Source of the DNA: an uncultured Clostridium sp.
GTDB taxonomy: Bacteria > Bacillota > Clostridia > TANB77 > CAG-508
Assembly (NCBI GenBank): GCA_945865665.1
Contig: CAMBEE010000005.1
Location: 17,186-81,185 of the forward strand
Length of the DNA: 64,000 bases
Direction: 5' to 3'
Part shown: one piece after another, positions 2,012 to 63,489 of the stretch
Layout of the letters: the number at the start of each line of letters is the position of its first letter
Numbering within the stretch: position 1 is the first letter of the stretch
The notes under the pieces: generated by a model
Told to the model about the DNA's origin: nothing
Databases searched by the model: none
The model's input: the letters and a program-made list of their open reading frames with translations, nothing else
Translations under genes and position numbers: made by a program

Positions 2012-2049
2012 CGGGATTATGGGACGGGTCTCCAATCCCCTTTTTTTTT
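2012..2049. terminator. Family-1 palindromic repeat (CGGGATT..GGGACGGGTCTCC..AATCCCC) plus T-run; bidirectional terminator between the SPFH gene and argS
   Basis: GC-rich hairpin followed by T9; the same unit recurs at 2105, 22084, 58724, 58766 and 60407. Confidence 0.7.
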
Positions 2050-2104
2050 AGAACATATATGAAAATTTCCAATTATCGTTCCCAACTTCACCTAAATTAA
2101 AAAT

Positions 2105-2135
2105 TAGGGATTGGAGACCCGTCCCCTAATCCCTA
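2105..2135. repeat. Family-1 palindromic repeat, inverted copy
   Basis: TAGGGATTGGAGACCCGTCCCCTAATCCCTA, reverse complement of the 2012 copy with one difference. Confidence 0.7.
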
Positions 2136-2139
2136 ATTT

Positions 2140-3888
2140 TTACATTTTTTCTGGCATTTCTATTCCCAACAAATTAGCCCCTTGTTTCAAAACTTCTGAT
2201 GTTGCATATGTTAAATATACACGAGCATTTTGAACATCTTTATCTTCAACAATAATTTTATTTTCATTATAAAAACTACTATAAGCTTTTGCCAAATCAA
2301 TTAAATATCTTGCAAGAATAGATGGTTCATTTTTATCTGTTACTTGAACCAATACATCTTCAAAATTATAAATCAATTTTAAAATCGCCATTGAATAATC
2401 ATCTGATAAATTTTCTGTTTTTACATCTTCGATTTTTGGTAAATATCCTGCTTTTTCTAATACACTTTTTGTTCTAACATATGTGTATTGAATATATGGG
2501 CCTGTTTCACCTTGGAAATTTAAAATTGTATTCCAGTCAAATACTTCATCTTTTATTCTTGATGCTGACATATCATTAAATATAACTGCACCTATTCCAA
2601 CTTTTTTAGCAACTTCTTCTTTATTTTCTAAGTCCGGATTTTTTTGTTCTATTATTTCTTTTGCTCTAGAAATTGCTTCATTCAACAATTCTTCAAGTTT
2701 GATAGTATTTCCTTCTCTTGTTGACATTTTTCCTTCTGGTAATAATACCATTCCAAATGATACATGCTCTAGTCCGTCTGTATATTTTTCATCTAATCCT
2801 AAAAGTTTTGCTACTTCAAATACTTGTTTAAAGTGCAATACTTGTTCATATGATGTTACATACAATGCTTTATCAAAGTCATACGTTCTAGCTCTATATA
2901 GTATTGCTGCTAAATCTCTTGTTGCATATGTTGTAGAACCATTTGATTTTTCTATTATACATGGTGTATTTATTCCTTTATCTTCTAGGTCTATTATTTT
3001 TGCCCCTTGTGATTCTACTAGTTTACCTGTTTTTTGTAATATATCTATTACTTCTGGCATTTTATCTGAGTAGAATGATTCTCCATTCCAAGAATCAAAT
3101 TTGCTTCCAAGTAAATCATATACTTTTTGGAATTCTTGTAAACTCAGTTCTCTAAATTTTTTCCAAATTTCTACACAATATGGGTCTCCATCTTCTAATT
3201 TCTTGAAGTTGTTTCTACAATTTTCTAATATTTGTTCATCATTCTTGCATGCTTCATTTATTCTTATATAAATTTTTGTTAATTCATTTATTGGATCTTT
3301 TTCAATGTCATATTCTTCTCCCCACATTTTGTATCCTTCTATTAGTTTTCCGAATTGTGTTCCATAATCTCCTAAATGATTGACTCCTGTTACATTATAT
3401 CCCAAATATTTGTATATATTATATAATGCTCCACCTATTACTGTTGAACGTAAGTGACCAATGTGAAATGGTTTTGCAATGTTTGGTGCTGAATAATCTA
3501 TTACTATATTCTTTTCTTTTCCTATTTCTGATTTTCCATATTGTTCTGTTTTTGATATTTCTTCTAATACTTCTTTTGCAAGAGTTTCTTTGTTTATAAA
3601 GAAGTTTAAGTATCCTCCTGCTACTTCTATTTTTTCTATTTCTTCTACTGTTTCTATTTTTTCTTTTATTTCATTTGCGATTGCTGGTGGTGCTTTTCTT
3701 AATTCTTTTGCTAATCTGAAACATGGAAACGCATAATCTCCATTTTTACTGTCTTTTGGAGTTTCAATGTAACTCTCTAATTCTTTCTCATTTATTTCTA
3801 TTGTTTTTGATATTTGTTTTGCTATTATTTTCTTAAAATTCCTCAATTTATTCATTCCTTTCTTAGGACATTTTTCCAAAATCCACAT
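2140..3888 (-). CDS. argS: arginine--tRNA ligase
   Basis: HIGH motif (PFHIGHLRS), typical ArgS length and C-terminal anticodon-binding region. An alternative start at 3855 (MNKLRNF) is possible. A TTGACT-17-TATAAT promoter lies upstream and no T-box was seen. Confidence 0.9.
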   Translation of the reverse strand: MWILEKCPKKGMNKLRNFKKIIAKQISKTIEINEKELESYIETPKDSKNGDYAFPCFRLAKELRKAPPAIANEIKEKIETVEEIEKIEVAGGYLNFFINKETLAKEVLEEISKTEQYGKSEIGKEKNIVIDYSAPNIAKPFHIGHLRSTVIGGALYNIYKYLGYNVTGVNHLGDYGTQFGKLIEGYKMWGEEYDIEKDPINELTKIYIRINEACKNDEQILENCRNNFKKLEDGDPYCVEIWKKFRELSLQEFQKVYDLLGSKFDSWNGESFYSDKMPEVIDILQKTGKLVESQGAKIIDLEDKGINTPCIIEKSNGSTTYATRDLAAILYRARTYDFDKALYVTSYEQVLHFKQVFEVAKLLGLDEKYTDGLEHVSFGMVLLPEGKMSTREGNTIKLEELLNEAISRAKEIIEQKNPDLENKEEVAKKVGIGAVIFNDMSASRIKDEVFDWNTILNFQGETGPYIQYTYVRTKSVLEKAGYLPKIEDVKTENLSDDYSMAILKLIYNFEDVLVQVTDKNEPSILARYLIDLAKAYSSFYNENKIIVEDKDVQNARVYLTYATSEVLKQGANLLGIEMPEKM

Positions 3889-5378: not shown

Positions 5379-5465
5379 AATTTTCCTCCATTTTTATCTT
5401 TTATCAAATTTGAACAATGCACTACCATCTAACATTTCCAAATGGTAATGCTCTGAATTTCAAAT

Positions 5466-6094: not shown

Positions 6095-6222
6095 TCGACC
6101 AATGGGGACGTTGTTAAATTGGTTAAATATATTAATTATATTTAACATCATTTTATATTTATTGTATCAACCAATTTAAGAACGTCCCCGTTGGTTGATT
6201 TAACAACGTCCCTATTGGTCGA
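6095..6222. repeat. Family-3 composite hairpin repeat (ACCAATGGGGACGTTGTTAAATTGGTT modules in inverted orientation)
   Basis: Nested inverted copies of a 27-nt hairpin module in the clpP-tig spacer; the same module forms the 33-bp terminal repeats at 59781-60010. Confidence 0.7.
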
Positions 6223-8008: not shown

Positions 8009-8041
8009 TCGAACAGCTCTTTTTTTGTTATTCTATATACT

Positions 8042-8070
8042 AAAAAAGACCGCAATAGCGGTCTTTTTTT
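8042..8070. terminator. bidirectional rho-independent terminator
   Basis: AAAAAAGACCGC-AATA-GCGGTCTTTTTTT. Confidence 0.65.
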
Positions 8071-8074
8071 AATG

Positions 8075-8425
8075 TTATTCCAATAATATCTTTATGTTTT
8101 CTCCGTTTCTAAATGCACGTAGAACTTCCAGGCTTAAATATCCAGAGAACCTTTGGATTAAATCTTTAACAGAAATATCTTCTTTTAAAATAATCATACC
8201 ATCTTTTTCTATAAATAAAAACATATCTGAATATTCATAAAAAAAAGCATAGGTTTTATCTCTCGATAATAATAATGTTGAGCTAATTCCATTGTTATTT
8301 AATTCACTAACAATATTATTGCCAAAACATTCTATTTTTTTTATTGACAATTCCCGTTTTCCTGTTCTTTCTAAGTAGCTCACAAATGCATTTCCTACTA
8401 AGTCATCAATTCCAATATAAATCAT
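8075..8425 (-). CDS. hypothetical protein (116 aa, soluble)
   Basis: Uninterrupted ORF with no recognisable motif. Confidence 0.45.
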   Translation of the reverse strand: MIYIGIDDLVGNAFVSYLERTGKRELSIKKIECFGNNIVSELNNNGISSTLLLSRDKTYAFFYEYSDMFLFIEKDGMIILKEDISVKDLIQRFSGYLSLEVLRAFRNGENIKILLE

Positions 8426-8608
8426 ATAACATCTCTCCTTCTCTTTTTAACTTGTTGAATTAATGCTTTTATATTAAGCCTCCTTATGTTGATTTATTAG
8501 GAGATAATCAATATTTAATACTTTTATATTAACATATATTCTTTAGATTTTCAACCATTTTTTATATTTTAAAATTAAAAAATGGAGATAGTTATACATC
8601 CCCATTTT

Positions 8609-8683
8609 CTAATCTTTAATTCCAAAAATAAATTTCACAAATCCACGTAAACATTTTGGAACCTTTTTTACAACTATAGTCAT
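8609..8683 (-). CDS. small ORF, 24-aa cationic amphipathic peptide (MTIVVKKVPKCLRGFVKFIFGIKD)
   Basis: RBS GGAGGGAG 5 nt upstream of ATG; not in the track (under 60 aa). Confidence 0.25.
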   Translation of the reverse strand: MTIVVKKVPKCLRGFVKFIFGIKD

Positions 8684-22017: not shown

Positions 22018-22083
22018 GTTTCCTCCTAGTATTTTTTATTATGATAATTTTATAATAAGGGTGATTTTTTGTCAATATAAAAT

Positions 22084-22112
22084 CGGGATTGAAGACCCGT
22101 CCCCCAATCCCG
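22084..22112. repeat. Family-1 palindromic repeat
   Basis: CGGGATTGAAGACCCGTCCCCCAATCCCG between pheT stop and the YhgE gene. Confidence 0.7.
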
Positions 22113-22118
22113 ATTTTT

Positions 22119-24636: not shown

Positions 24637-25686
24637 TTACTCTTCGTCTTTTCTATCAAATTGACTTAAAAATCTAACATCATTTGTATATAAATATCTC
24701 ATATCAGTAATACCATATCTAAACATAGCCAATCTATCAATGCCTGTACCAAATGCAAAACCACCGAATTTTTCTGGGTCATATCCATTCATTTTTAAAA
24801 CATTTGGATGAACAATTCCTGCACCCAAAACTTCTATCCAACCTGTTTGTTTACATAGGTTACATCCTTTTCCACCACATTTGAAACATGTAACATCTAC
24901 TTCATAAGATGGCTCTGTGAATGGGAAGTAACTTGGTCTAAATCTTAAATCTAAATTTGCTCCTATTATTTTTCTAACAAAAACTTCTAATGTTCCTTTT
25001 AAATCCGCTAAAGATACATTCCTTTCTTTTTTGTCAATTACTAATCCCTCTATTTGATTAAATTGATGTGAATGTGTTGCATCGTCTTCTCTTCTATATG
25101 TTTTCCCTGCTGTAATCATTCTTATTGGTGACTTTTCTGTATTTGCCATCATTGTTCTCGCTTGAACTGCTGATGTTTGTGTTCTTAATAAGTATTCGTC
25201 TGTAATATAGAAGCTATCTTGCATATCTCTTGCTGGGTGTCCCTTTGGAAGGTTTAGTCTTTCAAAACAATATTCATCATTTTCAAGTTCTGGTCCTGTT
25301 ACTACATCATATCCCATTGATACAAATAAGTCTTCTATGTCTTCTATTATTCTTGTTACAGGGTGTAAACTTCCTCTTTTCATTTTTGTGCTTGGTAATG
25401 TGATGTCAATTTTCTCTGCTTCCAATTTTTTATTTAATTCTTCTGTTTTGAATTTTTCTTCTTTTTCTTCAATTAATTTTTCTAGGCTTTCTTTAGCTTC
25501 ATTTACTAATCCACCTATTATTGGTCTTTCTTCTGGGCTTAGTCCTCCCATGCCTCTTAATACTGCTGTAAGTTCACCTTTTTTTCCTAGGTATTTTACT
25601 CTTACATTTTCTAATGTTTGTAGGTCTTCTGCTTTTGCTATTTCTTCAATAGCTGTTTTTTTGATGTTTTCAATTTGTTCTTTCAT
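24637..25686 (-). CDS. pheS: phenylalanine--tRNA ligase alpha subunit
   Basis: 349 aa, class II motifs ([25 protein letters not shown]). Confidence 0.95.
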
Positions 25687-25699
25687 CTTTTCTCCTTTC

Positions 25700-26010
25700 C
25701 AAATTTTCGTGTACTTTTATCCTTTTGTCCCATTAGGGGACGGTTCTTTTTGAGACATCGATTCTAAATAAGACATCGATGCAAAACAAAAATTGCCTTT
25801 AAAAAGGACATTTAAAAATCCATTTCTATTCTATTAGCACTTATTTGTGCTTATAGGACGAAATGGATTTCCGTGGTACCACCTAAATTTATTAATTTTT
25901 CTTTATACTTTAAAACATTTTTAATATACTCTTTTATTAATAAAATGCATATTTAATATAAAGTTACTAACCTCATTTTAGTTTTAACGGTGCAACCGCT
26001 TCTTCCTAAT
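25700..26010 (-). promoter_or_regulatory. T-box leader (Phe) with terminator/antiterminator
   Basis: On the minus strand, AGGTGGTACCACGG (fwd 25872-25885) matches the T-box consensus. It overlaps the 5' arm of an 11-bp terminator stem (AAATCCATTTC / GAAATGGATTT, fwd 25815-25871) followed by a U-run. Exact 5' boundary unknown. Confidence 0.65.
25726..25757 (-). repeat. Family-2 hairpin repeat between the T-box terminator and the pheS RBS
   Basis: Minus strand: TGTCTCAAAAAGAACCGTCCCCTAATGGGACA. Confidence 0.7.
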
Positions 26011-26034
26011 TTTTATTCTTGTTGGGTATCTTAT

Positions 26035-26065
26035 GTCCCAAACAGAACCGTCCCTAATGGGACAT
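26035..26065 (+). repeat. Family-2 hairpin repeat, inverted relative to the 25726 copy
   Basis: TGTCCCAAACAGAACCGTCCCTAATGGGACA. Confidence 0.7.
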
Positions 26066-26282
26066 TTTCAAAAGAAGTCCTAAAAAGTGAAATTTCTATA
26101 TATAGTTTTAAATATCTTTCAGCCTCGGATATTTTCTCTGTTTGTTTATTTATATATATACTTTGCTTTTTAATTGGATTTATTTTATTTGTTAATCTTT
26201 TATTATGTTATCATAGTTTGAGCTATTTTTCAAGCTTTTTTGAAAATTTAAATTTGTTTATTTTTAATAATTTTGCATTTTT

Positions 26283-26930
26283 TTATTCTTTTAATAATTT
26301 TTCTATTTCTTCTTTTTTTAGTTGTGTTGCTTCTTCAACTTGTTCACTTGTTAGTCCCATCTTAAATAATTTTTTTGCAATTTCTATGCTTTTTTCTTTA
26401 ATTCCCTCAATTTTACCTTCTATTTTACCTTCTTTTCTTCCCATATCAATATACATCTGATTTTCTCTTCTTATCATATCAACCACTGCTAACACTTCTT
26501 TTCCCCTCCCTTCTTCTATTTTATTTACTAATCTTTCTACTTCATCATCTCCTAGCTTTTCTTTAAATACTATTTTTATATTTTTCTATGTCTTTTATTT
26601 CTATTTTTGCATTTATTGCTTTATTTATTATTAAAACTGCATTTTCTTTTTTATCTAATATTGTTCTAAATATTTTATCATGCTCTTGATTTATTTCTTT
26701 CTCCTGAATATTTGCTTTTGAACTCATTCTTTCATATTTTACTTTTGGTTCTTGTAATTCAGCATAATAATTCTGATTATTATTTTCATCAATTATTTTC
26801 CAAAGTTTTTCGAATATTGTTTTATATTTTATATATTCTTTATATGTAAACTTTTCTATATTAATTTCATCTCCTTCATTATAATATTTGTTTTCATTTT
26901 TGTCAACATTTATTTATAAGTTTATATGTA
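26283..26930 (-). pseudogene. Rpn-family (PD-(D/E)XK, transposase_31-like) recombination-promoting nuclease, degraded remnant
   Basis: C-terminal 70-aa ORF ends GKIEGKIEGIKEKSIEIAKKLFKMGLTSEQVEEATQLKKEEIEKLL, the characteristic Rpn tail. An upstream fragment MSSKANIQEKEINQEHDKIFRTILDKKENAV carries the N-terminal HD..FR motif. The nuclease core is missing, although a TTGACA-17-TATAAT promoter (26878-26906) is still intact. Confidence 0.5.
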
Positions 26931-27101
26931 TTTTTTAATCACCTACTTTCATATTTTTTTAAATTCATTTTGGATTTTTTCTTTGATTTTAAATCTTTGA
27001 ATTAATTGATTTGAATAAAATTAAAGTACATTTATAATACAACAAAATGCTGAACTTTGCAACATTTTTTTATCGCAAAATTCGACATTTTCTGTTTAAT
27101 A

Positions 27102-27393
27102 GTTACAATTCACAGCTTTAAAAATTTTGTGTGCAAGTTGCCGCATTAAGGGTTATATATATTTGATATTGTATCCTGTTCATTACGTTTAAAAAGAAAA
27201 TCTAAAATATCTAACTGAGCCTCTCTCACTTAGGACAGAAATGTATATATGTATTTCTTTTGTGAGCATTCCTCAGTTTTTTATTTAAGATTTTCTATTT
27301 TTCACTTCAATCAAACGAATACAATATCAAATATATATAACCCTTAATGTGACAACTTGCACACAAAAATTTTAAAAAGCTGTGAATCGTAAC
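27102..27393. mobile_element. MITE-like non-autonomous element, copy 1 (292 bp, ~75-bp TIRs, TTTAATA target duplication)
   Basis: Ends GTTACAATTCACAGCTTTAAAAATTTTGTGTGCAAGTTGCC... and its inverted complement; flanks (g)TTTAATA on both sides; no ORF. Confidence 0.75.
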
Positions 27394-27420
27394 ATTTAAT
27401 AATCAAATATAAAACTAATA

Positions 27421-40974: not shown

Positions 40975-41062
40975 TGGTGCAGATGGCCGGAATCGAACCG
41001 GCACGGTTTATTCAACCGCAGGATTTTAAGTCCTGTGCGTCTACCAGTTCCGCCACATCTGC
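40975..41062 (-). tRNA. tRNA-Leu (anticodon UAA)
   Basis: Cloverleaf read by hand: 7-bp acceptor GCAGATG/CATCTGC, anticodon loop CTTAAAA, long variable arm, T-arm GGTTCGATTCC, encoded CCA. Confidence 0.9.
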
Positions 41063-49405: not shown

Positions 49406-49762
49406 TGGTGGAGATGAGGGGAGTCGAACCCCTGTCCATAATACTTTCCAAATAGACCTCTACAAGTTTATTTTATCTTTTATTTTCATCTTTAACTCGC
49501 GGATAAACACGCTAATTAAAAATATAGCTTTATAAAATACCCACTATTTCTAAAGCCAAAATAGCTTTGTTTCCTACTTTAGTTATAACACCCTTACTAA
49601 ATCAGTAGGCTATTTAGTTCAGATGACGTTGCAAACTAGGCAGCGTATGCTAATTCTTCGTTGTTAGCGTTTATTTTTATTTTCTCGTTTTTTAAGTGGC
49701 CAACGAGAATCCACTACTTGCTATCTGTTTTTCTGGTAATATGTCGAAACCTTTACATCCCC
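49406..49762 (-). ncRNA. ssrA: tmRNA (ssrA)
   Basis: 5' end GGGGATGTAAAGGTTTCGAC..., 3' tRNA-like end GGACAGGGGTTCGACTCCCCTCATCTCCACCA. Internal tag frame GCT AAC AAC GAA GAA TTA GCA TAC GCT GCC TAG gives a tag ending LAYAA. Confidence 0.85.
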
Positions 49763-57745: not shown

Positions 57746-58705
57746 TTACAATATAATATCTCTTTTTAAGAGCTTATCCTTTATAGTCCCTGTTCCAATA
57801 AATTTACATGTATTATAACTTGTACGGCTATATATTTTGTAGACCCCATCATCATATTTTTGTGTAAGCATAACTCCATTTAAAAAAAGTTCTAACTTTC
57901 TATTGTCTAATTCTATTGATAGCGAATTTTTAAATATACTTTCAACTGATATTATTTTGTTGTTTAAAATTTCTGTTGTTGTTACATTTTCTATATTTTC
58001 ATTATCATTTTTATCAATTTTTGTATCATTTATCTTATTGCTTTTTGAATTTTGAATAATATTATTTAATTCGTCTATTGTTATACTATCTTCAATTTTA
58101 AAGTCTCCAACTTGTATTCTTTTAAGTGATTTCATGTATCCAACTGTTTCAAATTTAGTAGCAATATCTTCACATAGACTTCTAATATATGTACCTTTTC
58201 CACAAGATACTTCGAATTTTATTTGTTTTTTTTCTGGTGAATAGTCAATTAAATCTATATTATAAATTTCTATTTGTCTTGGTTTTAATTCAACTTGTTG
58301 ACCTTTTCTTGCATATTCATATAGTTTTTTTCCATTCACTTTTATTGCAGAATAAATTGGTGGTACTTGCTCTTGCTTTCCTATAAATGTATCTAATATA
58401 TTCGTTATATTTTCATTCGTTAAAAGGCTTTCTTTTACTTGTTGTTCTTCAATTACTTTTCCTTCTGAGTCTGCTGTGTCTGTTTTTATTCCCAATTGTA
58501 ATTCAACAATGTATTTTTTATCATGATTTATTAGGTATTTTGAAAGCAATGTTCCTTTTCCGATTAAAATTGGTAACACTCCTTCTGCCATTGGGTCTAG
58601 CGTTCCGGTATGCCCTACTTTTTCGTTTAGCATCTTTTTTATTTTATATACAATGTCATGTGATGTGCATCCTTTTGTTTTGTTTATGATTATTATTCCG
58701 TCCAT
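57746..58705 (-). CDS. truB: tRNA pseudouridine(55) synthase
   Basis: GHTGTLDPMAEGVLPI catalytic motif; C-terminal PUA-like extension. Confidence 0.9.
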   Translation of the reverse strand: MDGIIIINKTKGCTSHDIVYKIKKMLNEKVGHTGTLDPMAEGVLPILIGKGTLLSKYLINHDKKYIVELQLGIKTDTADSEGKVIEEQQVKESLLTNENITNILDTFIGKQEQVPPIYSAIKVNGKKLYEYARKGQQVELKPRQIEIYNIDLIDYSPEKKQIKFEVSCGKGTYIRSLCEDIATKFETVGYMKSLKRIQVGDFKIEDSITIDELNNIIQNSKSNKINDTKIDKNDNENIENVTTTEILNNKIISVESIFKNSLSIELDNRKLELFLNGVMLTQKYDDGVYKIYSRTSYNTCKFIGTGTIKDKLLKRDIIL

Positions 58706-58723
58706 ATTTTCCTTTCTAAAAAT

Positions 58724-58793
58724 CGGGATAGGGGGACGGGTCTTTAATCCCTAAAAAATTTTTTAGGGATTAAAGACCCGTCCCCCTATCCCG
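58724..58793. repeat. Family-1 palindromic repeat, tandem inverted pair
   Basis: CGGGATAGGGGGACGGGTCTTTAATCCC-A6T6-GGGATTAAAGACCCGTCCCCCTATCCCG between nrnA stop and truB start. Confidence 0.75.
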
Positions 58794-58798
58794 ATTTT

Positions 58799-59755
58799 TT
58801 ATTTTAATACTTTTCTTATTTCTTTCATAACTTTTTGTTTTACTTGTTCAACGTCTCCTTGAGCTATAGCTCCTGCTGCTTTTTCGTGACCTCCGCCACC
58901 AAACATCATGCATATATCAGAAACATTAACATAGTCATTTGAACGCATAGAAATTTTATATGTATTTTCGTCATCATCCTTTTGTCTAATAAATACTGAA
59001 ACTTCAACACCTTCAACATCTCTACCTATCTCAACTAATCCTTCGTGGTCTCCTATTCCAGCATTTACTTCTTCCAAGTCTTTATTTGTTATATATGTAA
59101 AAGTAACTTTTCCATCTTCTAGGAATTCCATTCTGTCTATTGTTCTTCTCATTAATTCAAAGTTAGCTTTTGTTTTTGTTTCTAAAACTCTTTTATAAAT
59201 ATCTGAAACATTAACACCTTTTTCTAGTAATTCCGCTGTAAATTCAAATGTTTCAGGTGTTACTCCTGAATATCTGAATCCACCTGTGTCTGTAATGATT
59301 CCTGTTAATATACATGTTCCTAACTCTTTGTCTATGTTGATATTAAAGTATTGGAACATTCCTATTAATATTTGGCAACAAGCTGGTGCAACTGGATTTA
59401 CAAAGTTAATATCTCCATACATTTTGTTACTGCTGTGGTGGTCTATTACTATTGTTTGTTTTGCCTTTTCAAAATATTCATTTCCTACTAGCCTTTTGAA
59501 GTCCGCGCAGTCCAAGCTTATTGCTAAGTCATATCTTTCTACATCTGAATCTATTTTTATTTCTTCCCTTCCAGGTAGAAAGTCAAATATTTTTGGAACT
59601 TCTCTTATTATTACATCAGCATTTTTTCCTAGTTGTTTTAAGGCAACTCTCATAGCTAAACAACTTCCAATTGCATCTCCATCTGGTGTTTCATGTGCCA
59701 TTATTACTATTGTTTCAGCTTTTTTTATTTCTTCTAATATATTATCTAAAGTCAT
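58799..59755 (-). CDS. nrnA: bifunctional oligoribonuclease / pAp phosphatase NrnA (DHH-DHHA1)
   Basis: DHH motifs (HETPDGDAIGS, DHH), DHHA1 GGGH. Start placed at MTLDNIL (RBS GGAG); track ORF starts 7 codons earlier. Confidence 0.85.
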   Translation of the reverse strand: MTLDNILEEIKKAETIVIMAHETPDGDAIGSCLAMRVALKQLGKNADVIIREVPKIFDFLPGREEIKIDSDVERYDLAISLDCADFKRLVGNEYFEKAKQTIVIDHHSSNKMYGDINFVNPVAPACCQILIGMFQYFNINIDKELGTCILTGIITDTGGFRYSGVTPETFEFTAELLEKGVNVSDIYKRVLETKTKANFELMRRTIDRMEFLEDGKVTFTYITNKDLEEVNAGIGDHEGLVEIGRDVEGVEVSVFIRQKDDDENTYKISMRSNDYVNVSDICMMFGGGGHEKAAGAIAQGDVEQVKQKVMKEIRKVLK

Positions 59756-59780
59756 AATTTTCTCCATTCCTGTCATTTTT

Positions 59781-60010
59781 GTGAACCAATGGGGACGTTG
59801 TTAAATTGGTTGAATTACTAAATGTGTTTACTAATTAAAATTTTTTATATATTAGGAAAGTTATGCAACTTTCCTAATATATAAAATTACATTGCACAGA
59901 AAATTTATTTCATAAATTTTCGCGCACGAACAAATTTACTGAAAATTGAAAATTTTCAGATTTGTTCTTTTAAATTTTCAACCAATTTAACAACGTCCCC
60001 ATTGGTTCAC
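59781..60010. repeat. Family-3 MITE-like element (230 bp) bounded by perfect 33-bp inverted repeats
   Basis: GTGAACCAATGGGGACGTTGTTAAATTGGTTGA ... TCAACCAATTTAACAACGTCCCCATTGGTTCAC, with internal palindromes and no ORF. It sits between rbfA stop and nrnA start. Confidence 0.75.
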
Positions 60011-60019
60011 TTTGACAAT

Positions 60020-60376
60020 TTATTTGTTTGGCATTATTTCTTTTAATATTGAATCTATTTTTGCTCCATATTCCATTGAATCATCTATTTCAAATATCAA
60101 TTCTGGTGTGTTTCTTAAATTTATTCTTTTTGCCAATTCTGTTCTTATAAATCCTGATGATTTTTTAAGTCCTTCCATTGTGTCTTTTATATTTTTTGAA
60201 TTGAATATACTTACATATACTTTTGCATATTTCAAGTCTGGTGTTACTTTTACTTTTGTAACACTTATCATTCCTGTAATGCTTGAATTTTTTAATTCAA
60301 AACCAATAATTTGACTTAATTCTTTTCTGTATTCTTCGTCAATACGTCCCATTCTGTTATTGTTTTTATTAGGCAT
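60020..60376 (-). CDS. rbfA: ribosome-binding factor A
   Basis: 118 aa, KH-like fold signature (VTKVKVTPDLKYAKVYVS). Confidence 0.9.
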   Translation of the reverse strand: MPNKNNNRMGRIDEEYRKELSQIIGFELKNSSITGMISVTKVKVTPDLKYAKVYVSIFNSKNIKDTMEGLKKSSGFIRTELAKRINLRNTPELIFEIDDSMEYGAKIDSILKEIMPNK

Positions 60377-60406
60377 TTTGTCTACCTCCTCTTAATTGCA
60401 TTTTTT

Positions 60407-60435
60407 CGGGATTGGAGACCCGTCCCCTAATCCCG
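60407..60435. repeat. Family-1 palindromic repeat in the infB-rbfA spacer
   Basis: CGGGATTGGAGACCCGTCCCCTAATCCCG; no U-run follows on the transcribed (minus) strand. Confidence 0.7.
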
Positions 60436-60441
60436 ATTTTT

Positions 60442-63400
60442 TTATCTTTTTATCTCTTCCATGATATATACTTCAATGATATCTCCCTCTTTAACATCAT
60501 TGTAGTTTTCAATTTGCATACCACATTCAAATCCCTTTGTTACTTCTTTAGCATCATCCTTGAATCTCTTCAATGTAGCAAGTTTTCCTTCATGAATTAC
60601 AACATTATCTCTAATAACTCTAACTCCGGCATTTCTTTCAACTTTACCTGATAGAACATAAGCACCTGCAATTGTTCCAACATTTGATATTCTAAATGTT
60701 TGTCTTACTTCTGCATTTCCTATTACTTTTTCTTCATATTTTGGTGCTAACATTCCCTTCATTGCAGCTTCAACTTCTTCTATTGCTTGGTAAATTACTG
60801 AGTATTGTTTAATTTGTACTTCTTCTTTTTCTGCCATTTCTTTTGCTGCTGGTATTGGTCTAACATTGAATGCGATTATTATTGCATTTGATACTTTTGC
60901 AAGTGTTACATCTGATTCGTTGACTGCTCCTGGTGCTGCATGGATAACTTTTACTCTTACTTCTTCATTTTGTAATTTTTCCATTGATTGTTTAACAGCT
61001 TCTACAGATCCTTGAACATCTGCTTTTACAATTAAGTTTAATACTTTTAAATTTCCTTCTTCCATTTGTTCAAATAAATTATCAAGTGTAACTTTTGTTC
61101 CAGCTCCAATTGATTTTTCTCTAGCTTCACGTTTTCTCTTTTCGATTAAGTGTTTAGCTGTTTTTTCGTCTTTTACTTCGTAGAATGTATCTCCAGCTTC
61201 TGGCACTTCTGTTAATCCCATTATTTCTACTGGTGTTGATGGTCCTGCTGATTTTACTTTTTTACCGTTTTCGTTTGTCATTGCTCTTATTCTACCAATT
61301 GAAGAACCAACAATTATTGTATCTCCAACATCTAGTTTTCCTCTTTGTACAAGCATTGTTGCTATTGCACCTTTACCTTTATCAAGTCTTGCTTCTATAA
61401 CAACACCTTTTGCTTGTTTATTTGGATTTGCTTTTAATTCTAGTACATCGGCTTCTAATAATACCATTTCTAATAATTGGTCAATGTTTATGTTATTTTT
61501 AGCAGAGATTGGTACACATATTGTGTCACCACCCCATTCTTCTGGTACTAATTCATAGTTCATTAATTCTTGTTTTACCTTGTCAACATTTGCGTCTGGT
61601 AAATCAATTTTGTTTATTGCAACTATAATTGGTATTCCTGCTGATTTTGCATGGTTTATAGCTTCAACTGTTTGTGGCATTATACCATCATTTGCTGCAA
61701 CTACTAATATTGCTATATCAGTTATTTGAGCACCTCTTGCTCTCATTGCTGTAAATGCTTCATGTCCTGGTGTATCTAAGAATGTGATTTCTCTATCATT
61801 TACTTTAACTTTGTAAGCACCAATTGCTTGTGTGATTCCACCTGCTTCTCCACCAATTACATTTGTTTTTCTAATAGTGTCAAGTAATGATGTTTTACCA
61901 TGGTCAACGTGTCCCATAACAACAACTACTGGTGGTCTTACTTCTAAGTCTTCTTCTTTATCTTCAGAATCATCAAATAAGATATCTTCGTCTGTTACAG
62001 TTTCTTTCTTTTTAGCTGTTATTCCAAATTCTCCAGCAACCAAAAATGCTGTATCAAAATCTAAGTCTTGGTTGATTGTAGCCATAATTCCATATCCAAA
62101 TAATTTTTTAATAACTTCTGCAGTTGTTTTCTTCATTTCTGCTGCTAAGTCTTTTACTGATATTGTATCTGGTATTTCAATTTCTGTTAATTCAAATATT
62201 TTTTGTTTATTTCTTTCTTCATTTTTAACTTGTTTTTTCTTGCCTTTTCTGCCTCTTTGTGTTGTTAAATCATAGTAATCAAGCATTCCACCATCTTGGT
62301 CTTCAAACATATTTGATAATTTGCTTGTTTGTTTTAATGATTTTAATTTTCCCTCGTCAAAGCTATTTTCACTTCTTCTTGATTTTGATTTTTTGTTTTT
62401 GTTATCATCAAATCTATTATTTAATTTTTGTTTATCGATATTTTTACTATAATCTCTAACAACCTCTTTTTCAACAGTATCAACAGCCATTATGTTTTTA
62501 ATGTTCTTTTCAATTCCTTTTTCGTCTAATGGTCTTCTGTTATAATTATTTCCATTATAATTATTTTTATTATTGAAGTTTACATTATCTTTTTTGAAAT
62601 TATTTCTGTTATTTGAATTGTTAAATTCACCATTTCTATTGTTATTAAATCTGCTATTTCTGTTATCAAAACCATTTTTATTTTCAAAATTATTTCTATT
62701 TTCAAAACCGCTTCTGTTTTCAGAATTATTTCTATTATTGAAATTATTTCTGTTGTTTTGATTGTTTCTTGAATTACCATTTCTATTATTAAAATTATTT
62801 TTACTAAAGTTATTAGTTCTTTCTGAATTATTGAAATTTCCATTATTTCTTTTTTCTGCTACTTGTGATTGCATTGCTAAATTACTATCCCCTTGTCTTT
62901 TAATTTCTTCTTTTTTTACTGGCTCTATTTGTGCCTGTTCTTTTACATTTTTACTTTTTACTTCTTCTTTTACAACTTCTTTCTTTGGTTCTGGCTTATT
63001 AAGTCCAAACAATTCATTAACAGTTTTAGGTTTATTGGGCTTATTTCTATAAACTATATTAAAATCTTTATTTTGTTTTCTTTCAACTATCCCTATATTG
63101 CTTTTATTTTCTTTTTTTGTTTTATTATTTTTTTTATTATCTTCATCATTTATAATAACTTCTCTTCTTATTATAACTGGTGCTTTTTCTTCTTTTTTTG
63201 ATGTATTACTTGGTTTTACATCTTTTTTTGGTACAGAAACATTTTGTTTTACATCTTTTTTTGAGGTCATTTCTGGTTTTGAATCAGATTTTTTTGATAA
63301 GCTATTTTCTATTTTTCTAGCTTCTTCTTCTTCTACACCACTCATATGACTTTTAACTTCTATATTTAGTTTTTGTGCCATCTCTAATACTTCTTTACTG

Positions 63401-63489
63401 GCTAAGCCTAGCTTTTTTGCTATTTCATAAATTTTTACCTTACCCAATAACATCACCCCCATCGTATTTTTTTTGAATTGAATTTGCAA
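60442..63489 (-). CDS. infB: translation initiation factor IF-2, with an Asn/Arg-rich low-complexity insert
   Basis: Conserved N-terminus [17 protein letters not shown]-domain ([17 protein letters not shown]), C-terminal beta-barrels. The real start is probably 63453 or 63462; the 63489 track start is TTG. About 120 aa of NRN/NFN low-complexity is encoded around 62500-62880. Confidence 0.95.

Follow-up and report, generated by a model that had tools for sequence, protein, structure and literature searches.

The rbfA-nrnA Element

The window described here is the whole 64,000-nt stretch of contig CAMBEE010000005.1 from an uncultured Clostridium sp. (window coordinates are 1-based), in which a palindromic element of 230 bp lies in the spacer between rbfA and nrnA. 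The genes around it are read from the minus strand in the order infB, rbfA, element, nrnA and truB (Table 1). An original prediction made from the letters alone had described a single element with perfect 33-bp terminal inverted repeats (TIRs) that could be a miniature inverted-repeat transposable element (MITE), a long structured RNA or a recombination site, and that might supply the promoter of nrnA. The follow-up analysis indicates that the element is composite and is probably a mobile repeat resembling the doublets of repetitive extragenic palindromes (REPs) known as REP doublets forming hairpins (REPINs), with arms that carry the loop signature of the inverted repeats flanking REP-type Y1 transposase genes, a feature that had not been anticipated.

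A repeat search found two inverted arms that are 100% complementary over 34 nt, one nucleotide more than predicted, with 162 nt between them. As had been noted each arm is itself a hairpin, with a stem of AACCAAT and ATTGGTT closing a 14-nt loop (GGGGACGTTGTTAA). Both of the inner palindromes originally described were recovered, the first being perfect over 20+4+20 nt (59843-59862 and 59867-59886) and the second (59939-59947 and 59951-59959) forming the tip of a longer hairpin at 59928-59967, and a third inner hairpin was added at 59899-59921. The structure prediction that had been suggested gave a fold for the whole element of -113 kcal/mol as RNA (z = -19.4) and -84 kcal/mol as DNA (z = -19.3), with the single strand predicted to adopt a 34-bp closing helix and four inner hairpins.

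The 230 bp are two elements and not one, a composite that the original prediction did not foresee. They consist of a canonical inverted doublet of a repeat termed family A (about 103 bp, with two 34-nt units around a spacer of about 38 nt), in the central spacer of which sits an unrelated 127-nt repeat, family X. The sequences either side of X together match the normal spacer of an A doublet in length and look. Family X comprises three consecutive hairpins, without TIRs and without the GGGAC motif, and copies lacking A arms were found at L032:2604-2773 (96% identity) and L021:6058-6191 (87% identity; L-numbers denote compared loci or contigs), the latter sitting between a T-box terminator and a ribosome-binding site, with partial copies at L032:5426-5474 and L006:5543-5574. 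In L026 and L059 the allele is 94 nt shorter, the cut passing through the third hairpin of X, and because this cut falls between two AAATTT repeats the allele can be read as a deletion derivative of a window-like state. Rfam searches of the window in gathering mode matched only tmRNA and one tRNA (genes at 49406-49762 and 40978-41062, respectively, both on the minus strand), and in E-value mode neither the element nor the X copies had a meaningful match, those of the element having E >= 0.05 and lying far below the gathering score.

Table 1. Coordinates of the composite element, its neighboring genes and related hairpins in the window.
Feature	Position	Strand	Remarks
Left arm	59781-59814	+	Family-A unit with GGGGACG on the plus strand; own hairpin AACCAAT-GGGGACGTTGTTAA-ATTGGTT at 59784-59811
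Left part of canonical A spacer, TTACTAAATGTGTTTACTAATTAAAA	59815-59840		Resembles spacers of other A doublets, e.g., L016; X boundary uncertain by ~3 nt (T/A run)
Family-X repeat	59841-59967	+	Hairpins at 59843-59886, ~59893-59927 and 59928-59967
Right part of canonical A spacer	59968-59976
Right arm	59977-60010	-	Inverted family-A unit, perfect complement of left arm; own hairpin at 59980-60007
infB	60442-63489	-
rbfA	60020-60376	-
nrnA ORF	58799-59776	-	Start called in relatives is 59755, ~25 nt from the element
truB	57746-58705	-
Second family-A element, tig-clpP spacer	6095-6222		Both genes on minus strand; units 6098-6123 (+) and 6166-6199 (-), outer half-unit 6195-6218 (-)
Family-B solo hairpin, TCGGGATT-AGGGGACGGGTCTCC-AATCCCGA	60406-60436	-	infB-rbfA spacer; A-like loop signature, different stem
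Family-B inverted doublet	58725-58792		nrnA-truB spacer; units 58725-58751 (+) and 58766-58792 (-)
Family-B solo hairpin	22079-22117
Family-B inverted doublet, GGGATT-AGGGGACGGGTCTCC-AATCCC	2013-2142		Flanking A and T runs; between convergent genes
Family-C hairpins	25726-25757 and 26033-26065
Family-T solo hairpin, TGAGACA-CATGGGACAGTTTGATTT-TGTCTCA, then TTCTTTTGTCGAA	35039-35070		Just upstream of a minus-strand ribosome-binding site

Dispersal of Family A

Family A is dispersed, extragenic and polymorphic. The unit has the form AACCAAT-GGGGACGTTSTTAA-ATTGGTT, with a 7-10 bp A/T-rich stem and a 14-nt loop starting GGGGACG. Its 24-mer core occurs four times in the window at up to three mismatches (0 expected from 100 shuffles), and an exact-pattern scan for the core covering one genome per species matched 50 stretches, all from eight assemblies of uncultured gut Clostridia, including Clostridium sp. 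CAG:575. These 50 loci contain approximately 98 units at up to four mismatches, in keeping with the original view of a multi-copy, MITE-like repeat.

The commonest form is an inverted doublet of about 120 bp in which the strand bearing GGGGAC always comes first and its complement second. All 35 doublets have this +/- order, with a gap between the 24-nt cores of mostly 37-53 nt (range 7-172 nt, the window copy being the 172-nt extreme) and an A+T-rich interior that is conserved in part. In many copies one or two further half-units (GAACCAATGGGGACGTTSTT) are stacked on the outside, in mirror image at either end, which lengthens the arms to as much as 76 nt. The clusters are extragenic in 56 of 58 cases, with 32 between co-directional, eight between convergent and three between divergent genes and 13 at contig edges. 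The outer flanks of the units (GTGA, TTGA, TCGA, TCAA or GAGA) differ between copies, and solo units lie in both orientations relative to transcription (7 vs. 3). The two arms of a doublet differ by a mean of 1.29 mismatches per 34 nt compared with 3.24 between doublets, 16 of the 35 doublets being perfect, and the G/C variant of GTTSTT agrees between arms in 34 of 35, indicating that doublets evolve as units.

Small, dispersed and polymorphic repeats with long perfect TIRs would be expected of a classical MITE, an internally deleted insertion sequence with 34-bp TIRs that is moved in trans by a DDE transposase. However, no target-site duplication was found at the allelic sites (rbfA-nrnA and tig-clpP), as the original prediction had also noted, and clustering of all ORFs (open reading frames) from the loci revealed none that recurs beside the repeats within any genome, only ordinary paralogues. 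Likewise, no longer element bounded by A arms was found in the 50 loci, with housekeeping genes occupying the interval where A units lie kilobases apart (L007 and L036), and viral contigs gave zero matches for both A and X. Moreover each arm folds on itself into a hairpin whose loop is conserved and whose outer stem varies, as expected of the single-stranded substrate of an HUH enzyme and not of a double-stranded DDE end. A classical MITE is considered improbable. In L036 a small GIY-YIG gene adjoins one of the A units, which was treated as a coincidence.

Allelic Variation at Matching Sites

The content of the rbfA-nrnA spacer varies between close relatives. Among three species-level relatives with almost identical flanks, L025 has a solo 34-nt unit, L026 a doublet and the window a doublet plus 94 nt. 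Ten further contigs encode an RbfA identical to that of the window, of which two have a solo unit (L051 and L060), one a doublet (L059) and seven (L052-L058) one or two doublets of another hairpin family, D. In the tig-clpP spacer of strains with identical ClpP, a 75-nt empty spacer was found in three contigs (L061, L062 and L068), a 227-nt nested A element in five (L063-L067), a centre-deleted remnant in one and a D-like hairpin in one. The window has a real element at this site, which had been described as a shorter and rearranged version of the rbfA-nrnA element but is instead a nested A doublet without one left 24-nt half-unit relative to L063-L067. Between convergent genes at 1995-2135, a doublet of family B occupies the position of a nested A element in L027, with identical flanks.

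Solo units, forms that have lost their centre and the alleles with deletions of 94 nt or 24 nt indicate that copies differ by deletions between short direct repeats, as judged from the sequences compared, and palindromes would be expected to stimulate such deletions. The checks on copy number and insertion polymorphism that had been proposed therefore returned about 98 units in eight assemblies, together with solo, doublet, composite, other-family and empty alleles. The original prediction had named an invariant locus in relatives, with no other copies, as the mark of a locus-specific structure; the alleles found are polymorphic and the copies many.

The same alleles bear on the proposal that the element is a locus-specific regulatory leader or promoter for nrnA. 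The element does end about 25 nt upstream of the nrnA start, as stated originally, and weak promoter-like hexamers were found on the sense strand at 59804-59775 and 59785-59757. However, promoter-like matches in 58600-60500 are not enriched (10 vs. 9.6 expected), no Rfam family matches, many copies lie elsewhere and the 25 nt proximal to nrnA are constant across strains with identical RbfA in which the inserts are quite different. Since a solo unit, a doublet, a composite or another family can occupy the one spot, the element is dispensable for nrnA. As such the allele series would appear to have largely refuted this proposal already, and it is regarded as very improbable.

Other spacers nearby also vary. 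The clpP-clpX spacer (5379-5465) contains a 73-nt palindromic insert, TTTGAA..GCATTACCATTT-GGAAATGTT-AAATGGTAATGC..TTCAAA, that is absent in L062 and L068 (spacer of 14 nt), with other strains having different inserts of 69-157 nt. At 8029-8610 the window has a 580-nt segment with a 116-aa ORF (8075-8425, minus strand) that is absent from the orthologous L005 and L021, the latter having a solo family-A unit at the matching junction.

Other Hairpin Families With a GGGAC Loop

There are 15 copies of the hexamer GGGACG in the window, almost all of them in hairpin loops, in families that differ in stem. An explicit hairpin descriptor (a stem of 6 bp or more closing a loop of 10-19 nt in which GGGAC starts at offset 0-4), assessed against simulated controls, was used instead of a covariance model of the Y1-flanking hairpins, with MAFFT alignments anchored on GGGAC leaving the 3′ stems out of register. 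It gave 10 matches in the window compared with 0.42 expected (maximum of 2 in 100 simulations), and other permutations of the pentamer gave 0-2 matches save for those overlapping the GGGAC motif. The stem is ACCAAT in family A and that of CGGGATT-AGGGGACGGGTCTCC-AATCCCG in family B, while the unit of family D is TTGTCAA-CAGGGACGCCCTTTT-TTGACAA. Family G forms doublets of AGGGATT-AAGGGGCCACCAC(N5)-AATCCCT (L007 2076-2161, L011 4988-5142 and 7076-7148, and L024, L044, L009, L033 and L047), and in four loci (L007, L011, L024 and L044) solo units or doublets of family A lie exactly in the central spacer of a G doublet. No clean empty site for such an insertion was found, the G doublets with and without A being different subfamilies.

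A GGGAC-loop hairpin element is present in every spacer of infB-rbfA-nrnA-truB, in keeping with the suggestion that these are host-selected structural elements (an RNase III or other processing site, an mRNA stabilizer, an attenuator or a terminator) that punctuate operons and resemble transposase substrates only incidentally. REPs are known to recruit DNA gyrase, which would be in keeping with such a role. The extremely stable predicted RNA fold with its 34-bp closing helix would fit such a role, as would the one inner hairpin that scores as terminator-like on the sense strand, the B doublets with flanking A and T runs between convergent genes and the stabilization of mRNA and recruitment of integration host factor (IHF) reported for REPs (PMC3479197). 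However, in strains with identical RbfA or ClpP one spot can be occupied by a solo unit, a doublet, a composite or another family, or can be empty, indicating that no particular structure is required. The presence of solo units in both orientations also speaks against a structural role, and function would leave the GGGAC loop motif at the ends of Y1 genes (see below) unexplained. Host selection for structure is therefore an unlikely primary explanation, and as a secondary, exapted effect it is compatible with a mobile REPIN-like repeat.

Separately, two family-C hairpins bracket a probable T-box leader (GGTGGTACCACG) on the minus strand at 25700-26070, upstream of a gene at 24637-25686. This candidate scores below the Rfam gathering threshold, and its L021 orthologue, after which family X is inserted, is a partial T-box match (E = 9e-5). 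An imperfect inverted repeat at 27087-27408 (arms of about 84 nt, 83% complementarity, 92 nt between) falls in a stretch of about 1.7 kb (25690-27420) without a convincing gene.

Link to Y1 Transposase Genes

Searches by tblastn with IS608, IS200 and E. coli REP-associated tyrosine transposase (RAYT) sequences gave only a weak match in L029, from an A-rich genome, and this led to a Y1 gene. The gene (L029:5588-6334) encodes a 248-aa protein with a Pfam Y1_Tnp match (E = 8e-7) and a weak match to a C-terminal helix-turn-helix (HTH), the best NCBIfam match being REP-associated tyrosine transposase (E = 1e-16, 61 bits against a cut-off of 80) with IS200 barely scoring. It has approximately 1000 homologues of 240-260 aa, N-H-x-H and CIKYIHMNPVKA are invariant in the Y1 alignment, and the synteny recD2-Y1-comF is kept across species with Y1 copies that are 78-80% identical.

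In three species (L029, L071 and L075) inverted repeats of 38-46 nt, lying 925-967 nt apart, bracket the Y1 gene. The repeats of the L029 type, family T, are hairpins of the form TGAGACA-nnTGGGACAGTCCnAAnT-TGTCTCA (TGAGACA-nnTGGGACAGTCC..-TGTCTCA), and a T-flanked Y1 gene is laid out as an A doublet would be if a gene sat at its centre, with matching +/- order. Family T is itself dispersed, with both solos and doublets across at least 12 A-bearing loci and one unit in the window. In L029 the last residues of the recD2-like ORF that precedes the gene come from the upstream repeat, and the downstream repeat overlaps the called comF start.

Scanning metagenomes for relatives of the Y1 protein gave 80 loci, and the 48 with usable flanks were searched, blind to motif, for their best inverted repeat. 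This repeat contains GGGAC in 38 of the 48 loci. Among the 64 distinct flanking hairpin units the loop always begins, after 0-4 nt, with GGGAC plus a purine, with stems that vary widely (GAGACA, GAACAC, TAGACA, TGCCAA, TTCCCC, AGGGATT, TGTCAA, TGAACTTT, TGATTTT and others). A hairpin with a GGGAC loop is the common feature of the ends of this large Y1 gene family of gut Firmicutes, which is of the type known as TIRYT or subclass 2.1. One locus (L116) has its Y1 gene between mirrored tandem arrays of three to four TTCCCC-CTCAGGGGACACACACCGGAA-GGGGAA units (39-168 and 1115-1244), a stacked-array architecture that is also that of the nested family-A elements.

Two of the families that replace A in sister strains could be assigned to Y1 genes. 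The Y1 gene in L127, L129 and L137 has family D as its inverted repeat and a 259-aa Y1 in L123 has family E, and both families occupy A-type spacers in sister strains. The flanks of the L127, L129 and L123 types of locus are 88-95% identical to A-bearing genomes, indicating that the clade holds several Y1 paralogues.

The closest resemblance to family A was found in L143 (also L158 and L159), where a 276-aa Y1 has 107-nt flanking inverted repeats built from TTGAAC-TTT-GGGGACGTTCCTT-AAA-GTTCAA, compared with TTGAAC-CAAT-GGGGACGTTCTTAA-ATTG-GTTCAA in family A. Near-A units thus flank a Y1 gene elsewhere (L143/L158). The 14 kb of L158 contain four gene-flanking units and about a dozen further TGAAC-type units, mostly as inverted doublets, and in another species (L161) a 65%-identical Y1 has an L143-like near-A arrangement. 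A third near-A hairpin falls within the Y1 ORF of L143 at its 3′ end (901-930; about 3873-3905 in L158), where it supplies the last codons.

Interpretation and Proposed Mechanism

Taken together the element is best read as a REPIN-like mobile repeat of the REP/REPIN-TIRtron kind, tied by its architecture to HTH-bearing REP-type Y1 transposases, and not as an nrnA-specific regulator, a reading to which we assign a probability of roughly 0.68. Family A and its relatives B, D, E, G and T would accordingly represent new REPIN or TIR-repeat families in uncultured gut Clostridia.

Several observations weigh against this reading. No A-flanked Y1 gene was found by tblastn in the 50 A-bearing loci (fetched genome parts) or the window, and we therefore infer the mobilization of A, the link resting on shared architecture and on the near-A family in another organism. 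The fit of family A (GGGGACGT) to the published GGGGWSAS motif extends to 6 of 8 positions, compared with 7 of 8 for family T (TGGGACAG) and a full match for many metagenomic Y1 loci (GGGGACAC or GGGGACAG). Family X is without the GGGAC motif, such that its mobility needs another explanation. The comparison of empty sites that had been suggested yielded truly empty tig-clpP alleles but no clean pair of empty and filled sites with a defined junction for A, the tig-clpP flanks differing by a few bases. A sequence search of the PDB with the Y1 protein found no relative with a solved structure, no biochemical activity is known for the HTH-bearing Y1 subclass, and selection acting on a hairpin in RNA or DNA could also maintain the complementarity of the arms. 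Integron attC sites, CRISPR repeats, DNA-uptake sequences and CsrA or CodY sites were also considered and were dropped, their orientation, gene context or motif arrangement being unfit.

If the element is such a REPIN-like repeat, an HTH-bearing Y1 enzyme would bind the folded A unit on single-stranded DNA, reading the loop motif and not the stem, and would cut and rejoin the DNA such that doublets are copied into new sites. New copies would favor the single-stranded apex of older palindromes or sites beside terminators, and insertion into palindrome apexes would explain the nesting of X in A (in the window), of A in A and of A in G. Copies would then decay by deletions between short direct repeats. 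The element is transcribed as part of the infB-rbfA-nrnA-truB operon, and its RNA would form a very stable fold. Because of this co-transcription the long structured RNA of the original prediction may exist as a side effect, and it may act in RNA processing or termination. The recombination site proposed at the same time would hold only in the sense of a probable substrate of an HUH enzyme.

A broader and more tentative proposal is that the whole HTH-bearing Y1 branch (TIRYT or subclass 2.1) might use one recognition module, a hairpin with a loop beginning GGGAC(R) and a stem that is free to vary. If this is true, gut Firmicutes would host true REPIN-like populations, in which several cognate and orphan families coexist within a single small genome, vie for the same intergenic hot spots and insert at the apexes of one another's palindromes. 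Systems of REPs or REPINs with RAYTs have been studied almost only in Proteobacteria, and the dispersed partners of the HTH-bearing Y1 subclass were left unidentified in the published survey, the TIR families of Di Nocera et al. excepted. The small A+T-rich genomes of gut Clostridia offer a compact and testable case, with an explicit rule, nameable enzymes and natural allele series at essential operons. For annotation, such elements would explain much of the strain-to-strain variation in spacer length and should not be read as regulators of the neighboring genes. Since several units sit at contig ends, such elements are also likely to cause breaks in metagenome assemblies.

Comparison With Known Systems

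Small intergenic repeats with inverted ends and long hairpins that are co-transcribed with their neighbors include the Correia elements of Neisseria and RUP, BOX and SPRITE of Streptococcus pneumoniae, the transcripts of Correia elements being cut by RNase III. Unlike the families described here these duplicate a defined target (TA for Correia), are tied to insertion sequences of the DDE type and are not known to be associated with a Y1 enzyme or to have a conserved loop motif.

The IS200/IS605 elements and their miniatures share with the present system an HUH Y1 enzyme, single-stranded hairpin substrates and the absence of a target-site duplication. In form their miniatures resemble family X, with hairpins at both ends, no TIRs and a position after T-runs. 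However, the two ends of IS200/IS605 do not form an inverted-repeat pair, the enzymes found here score far better on the REP-associated model than on that of IS200, and there is no TnpB gene nearby.

A closer likeness is seen with the REPIN/RAYT systems of Pseudomonas and E. coli (PMC3116915; PMC3333891; PMC8266576). In both cases short extragenic palindromic units form inverted pairs around a short spacer, tens of copies are present per genome, doublets evolve as units with solos looking like decay products, and a single-copy, vertically inherited HUH Y1 gene has its own flanking units (here families T, D, E and near-A). The enzymes here also best match the NCBIfam REP-associated tyrosine transposase, and one RAYT group has been noted in Clostridia (Bertels et al., PMC5581495). 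The canonical REP has a GTAG or GTGG tag 0-2 nt 5′ of the hairpin, a G+C-rich stem of 7-20 bp and a loop of 2-5 nt (PMC6006769). In contrast, family A is without such a tag, the stems here are A/T-rich and of 6-10 bp (AACCAAT/ATTGGTT in family A), and the loops are of 11-19 nt (14 nt in family A) and carry the conserved GGGAC(R). The enzymes differ from RAYTs in having an extra C-terminal HTH and in their Firmicutes hosts, and unlike REPINs several families per genome replace each other at spacers and are stacked as mirrored arrays of half-units.

TIRYT genes are RAYT-like and flanked by inverted repeats, many of which share GGGGWSAS and some of which make up repeat families with dimeric or clustered copies (Di Nocera et al., 2013, PMC3733652). 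They have been equated with Y1 subclass 2.1, which has a C-terminal HTH, and no REP-like sequences were found near subclass 2.1 genes in that survey (Quentin et al., PMC6006769). Neither of these papers (PMC3733652; PMC6006769) states the rule seen here, with the motif at the 5′ side of the hairpin loop and a stem that varies freely. The present system differs from TIRtrons in the 6 of 8 fit of GGGGACGT to GGGGWSAS and in that no Y1 gene was seen between A units in A-bearing genomes. It resembles them in the Y1 gene with a C-terminal HTH and flanking TIRs (L029, L071, L075 and 38 of 48 further loci), in a motif of the GGGG(A)(C) type, in the self-complementarity of some of the inverted repeats and in the dispersal of repeat copies as singles, dimers and clusters (families T, near-A and A).

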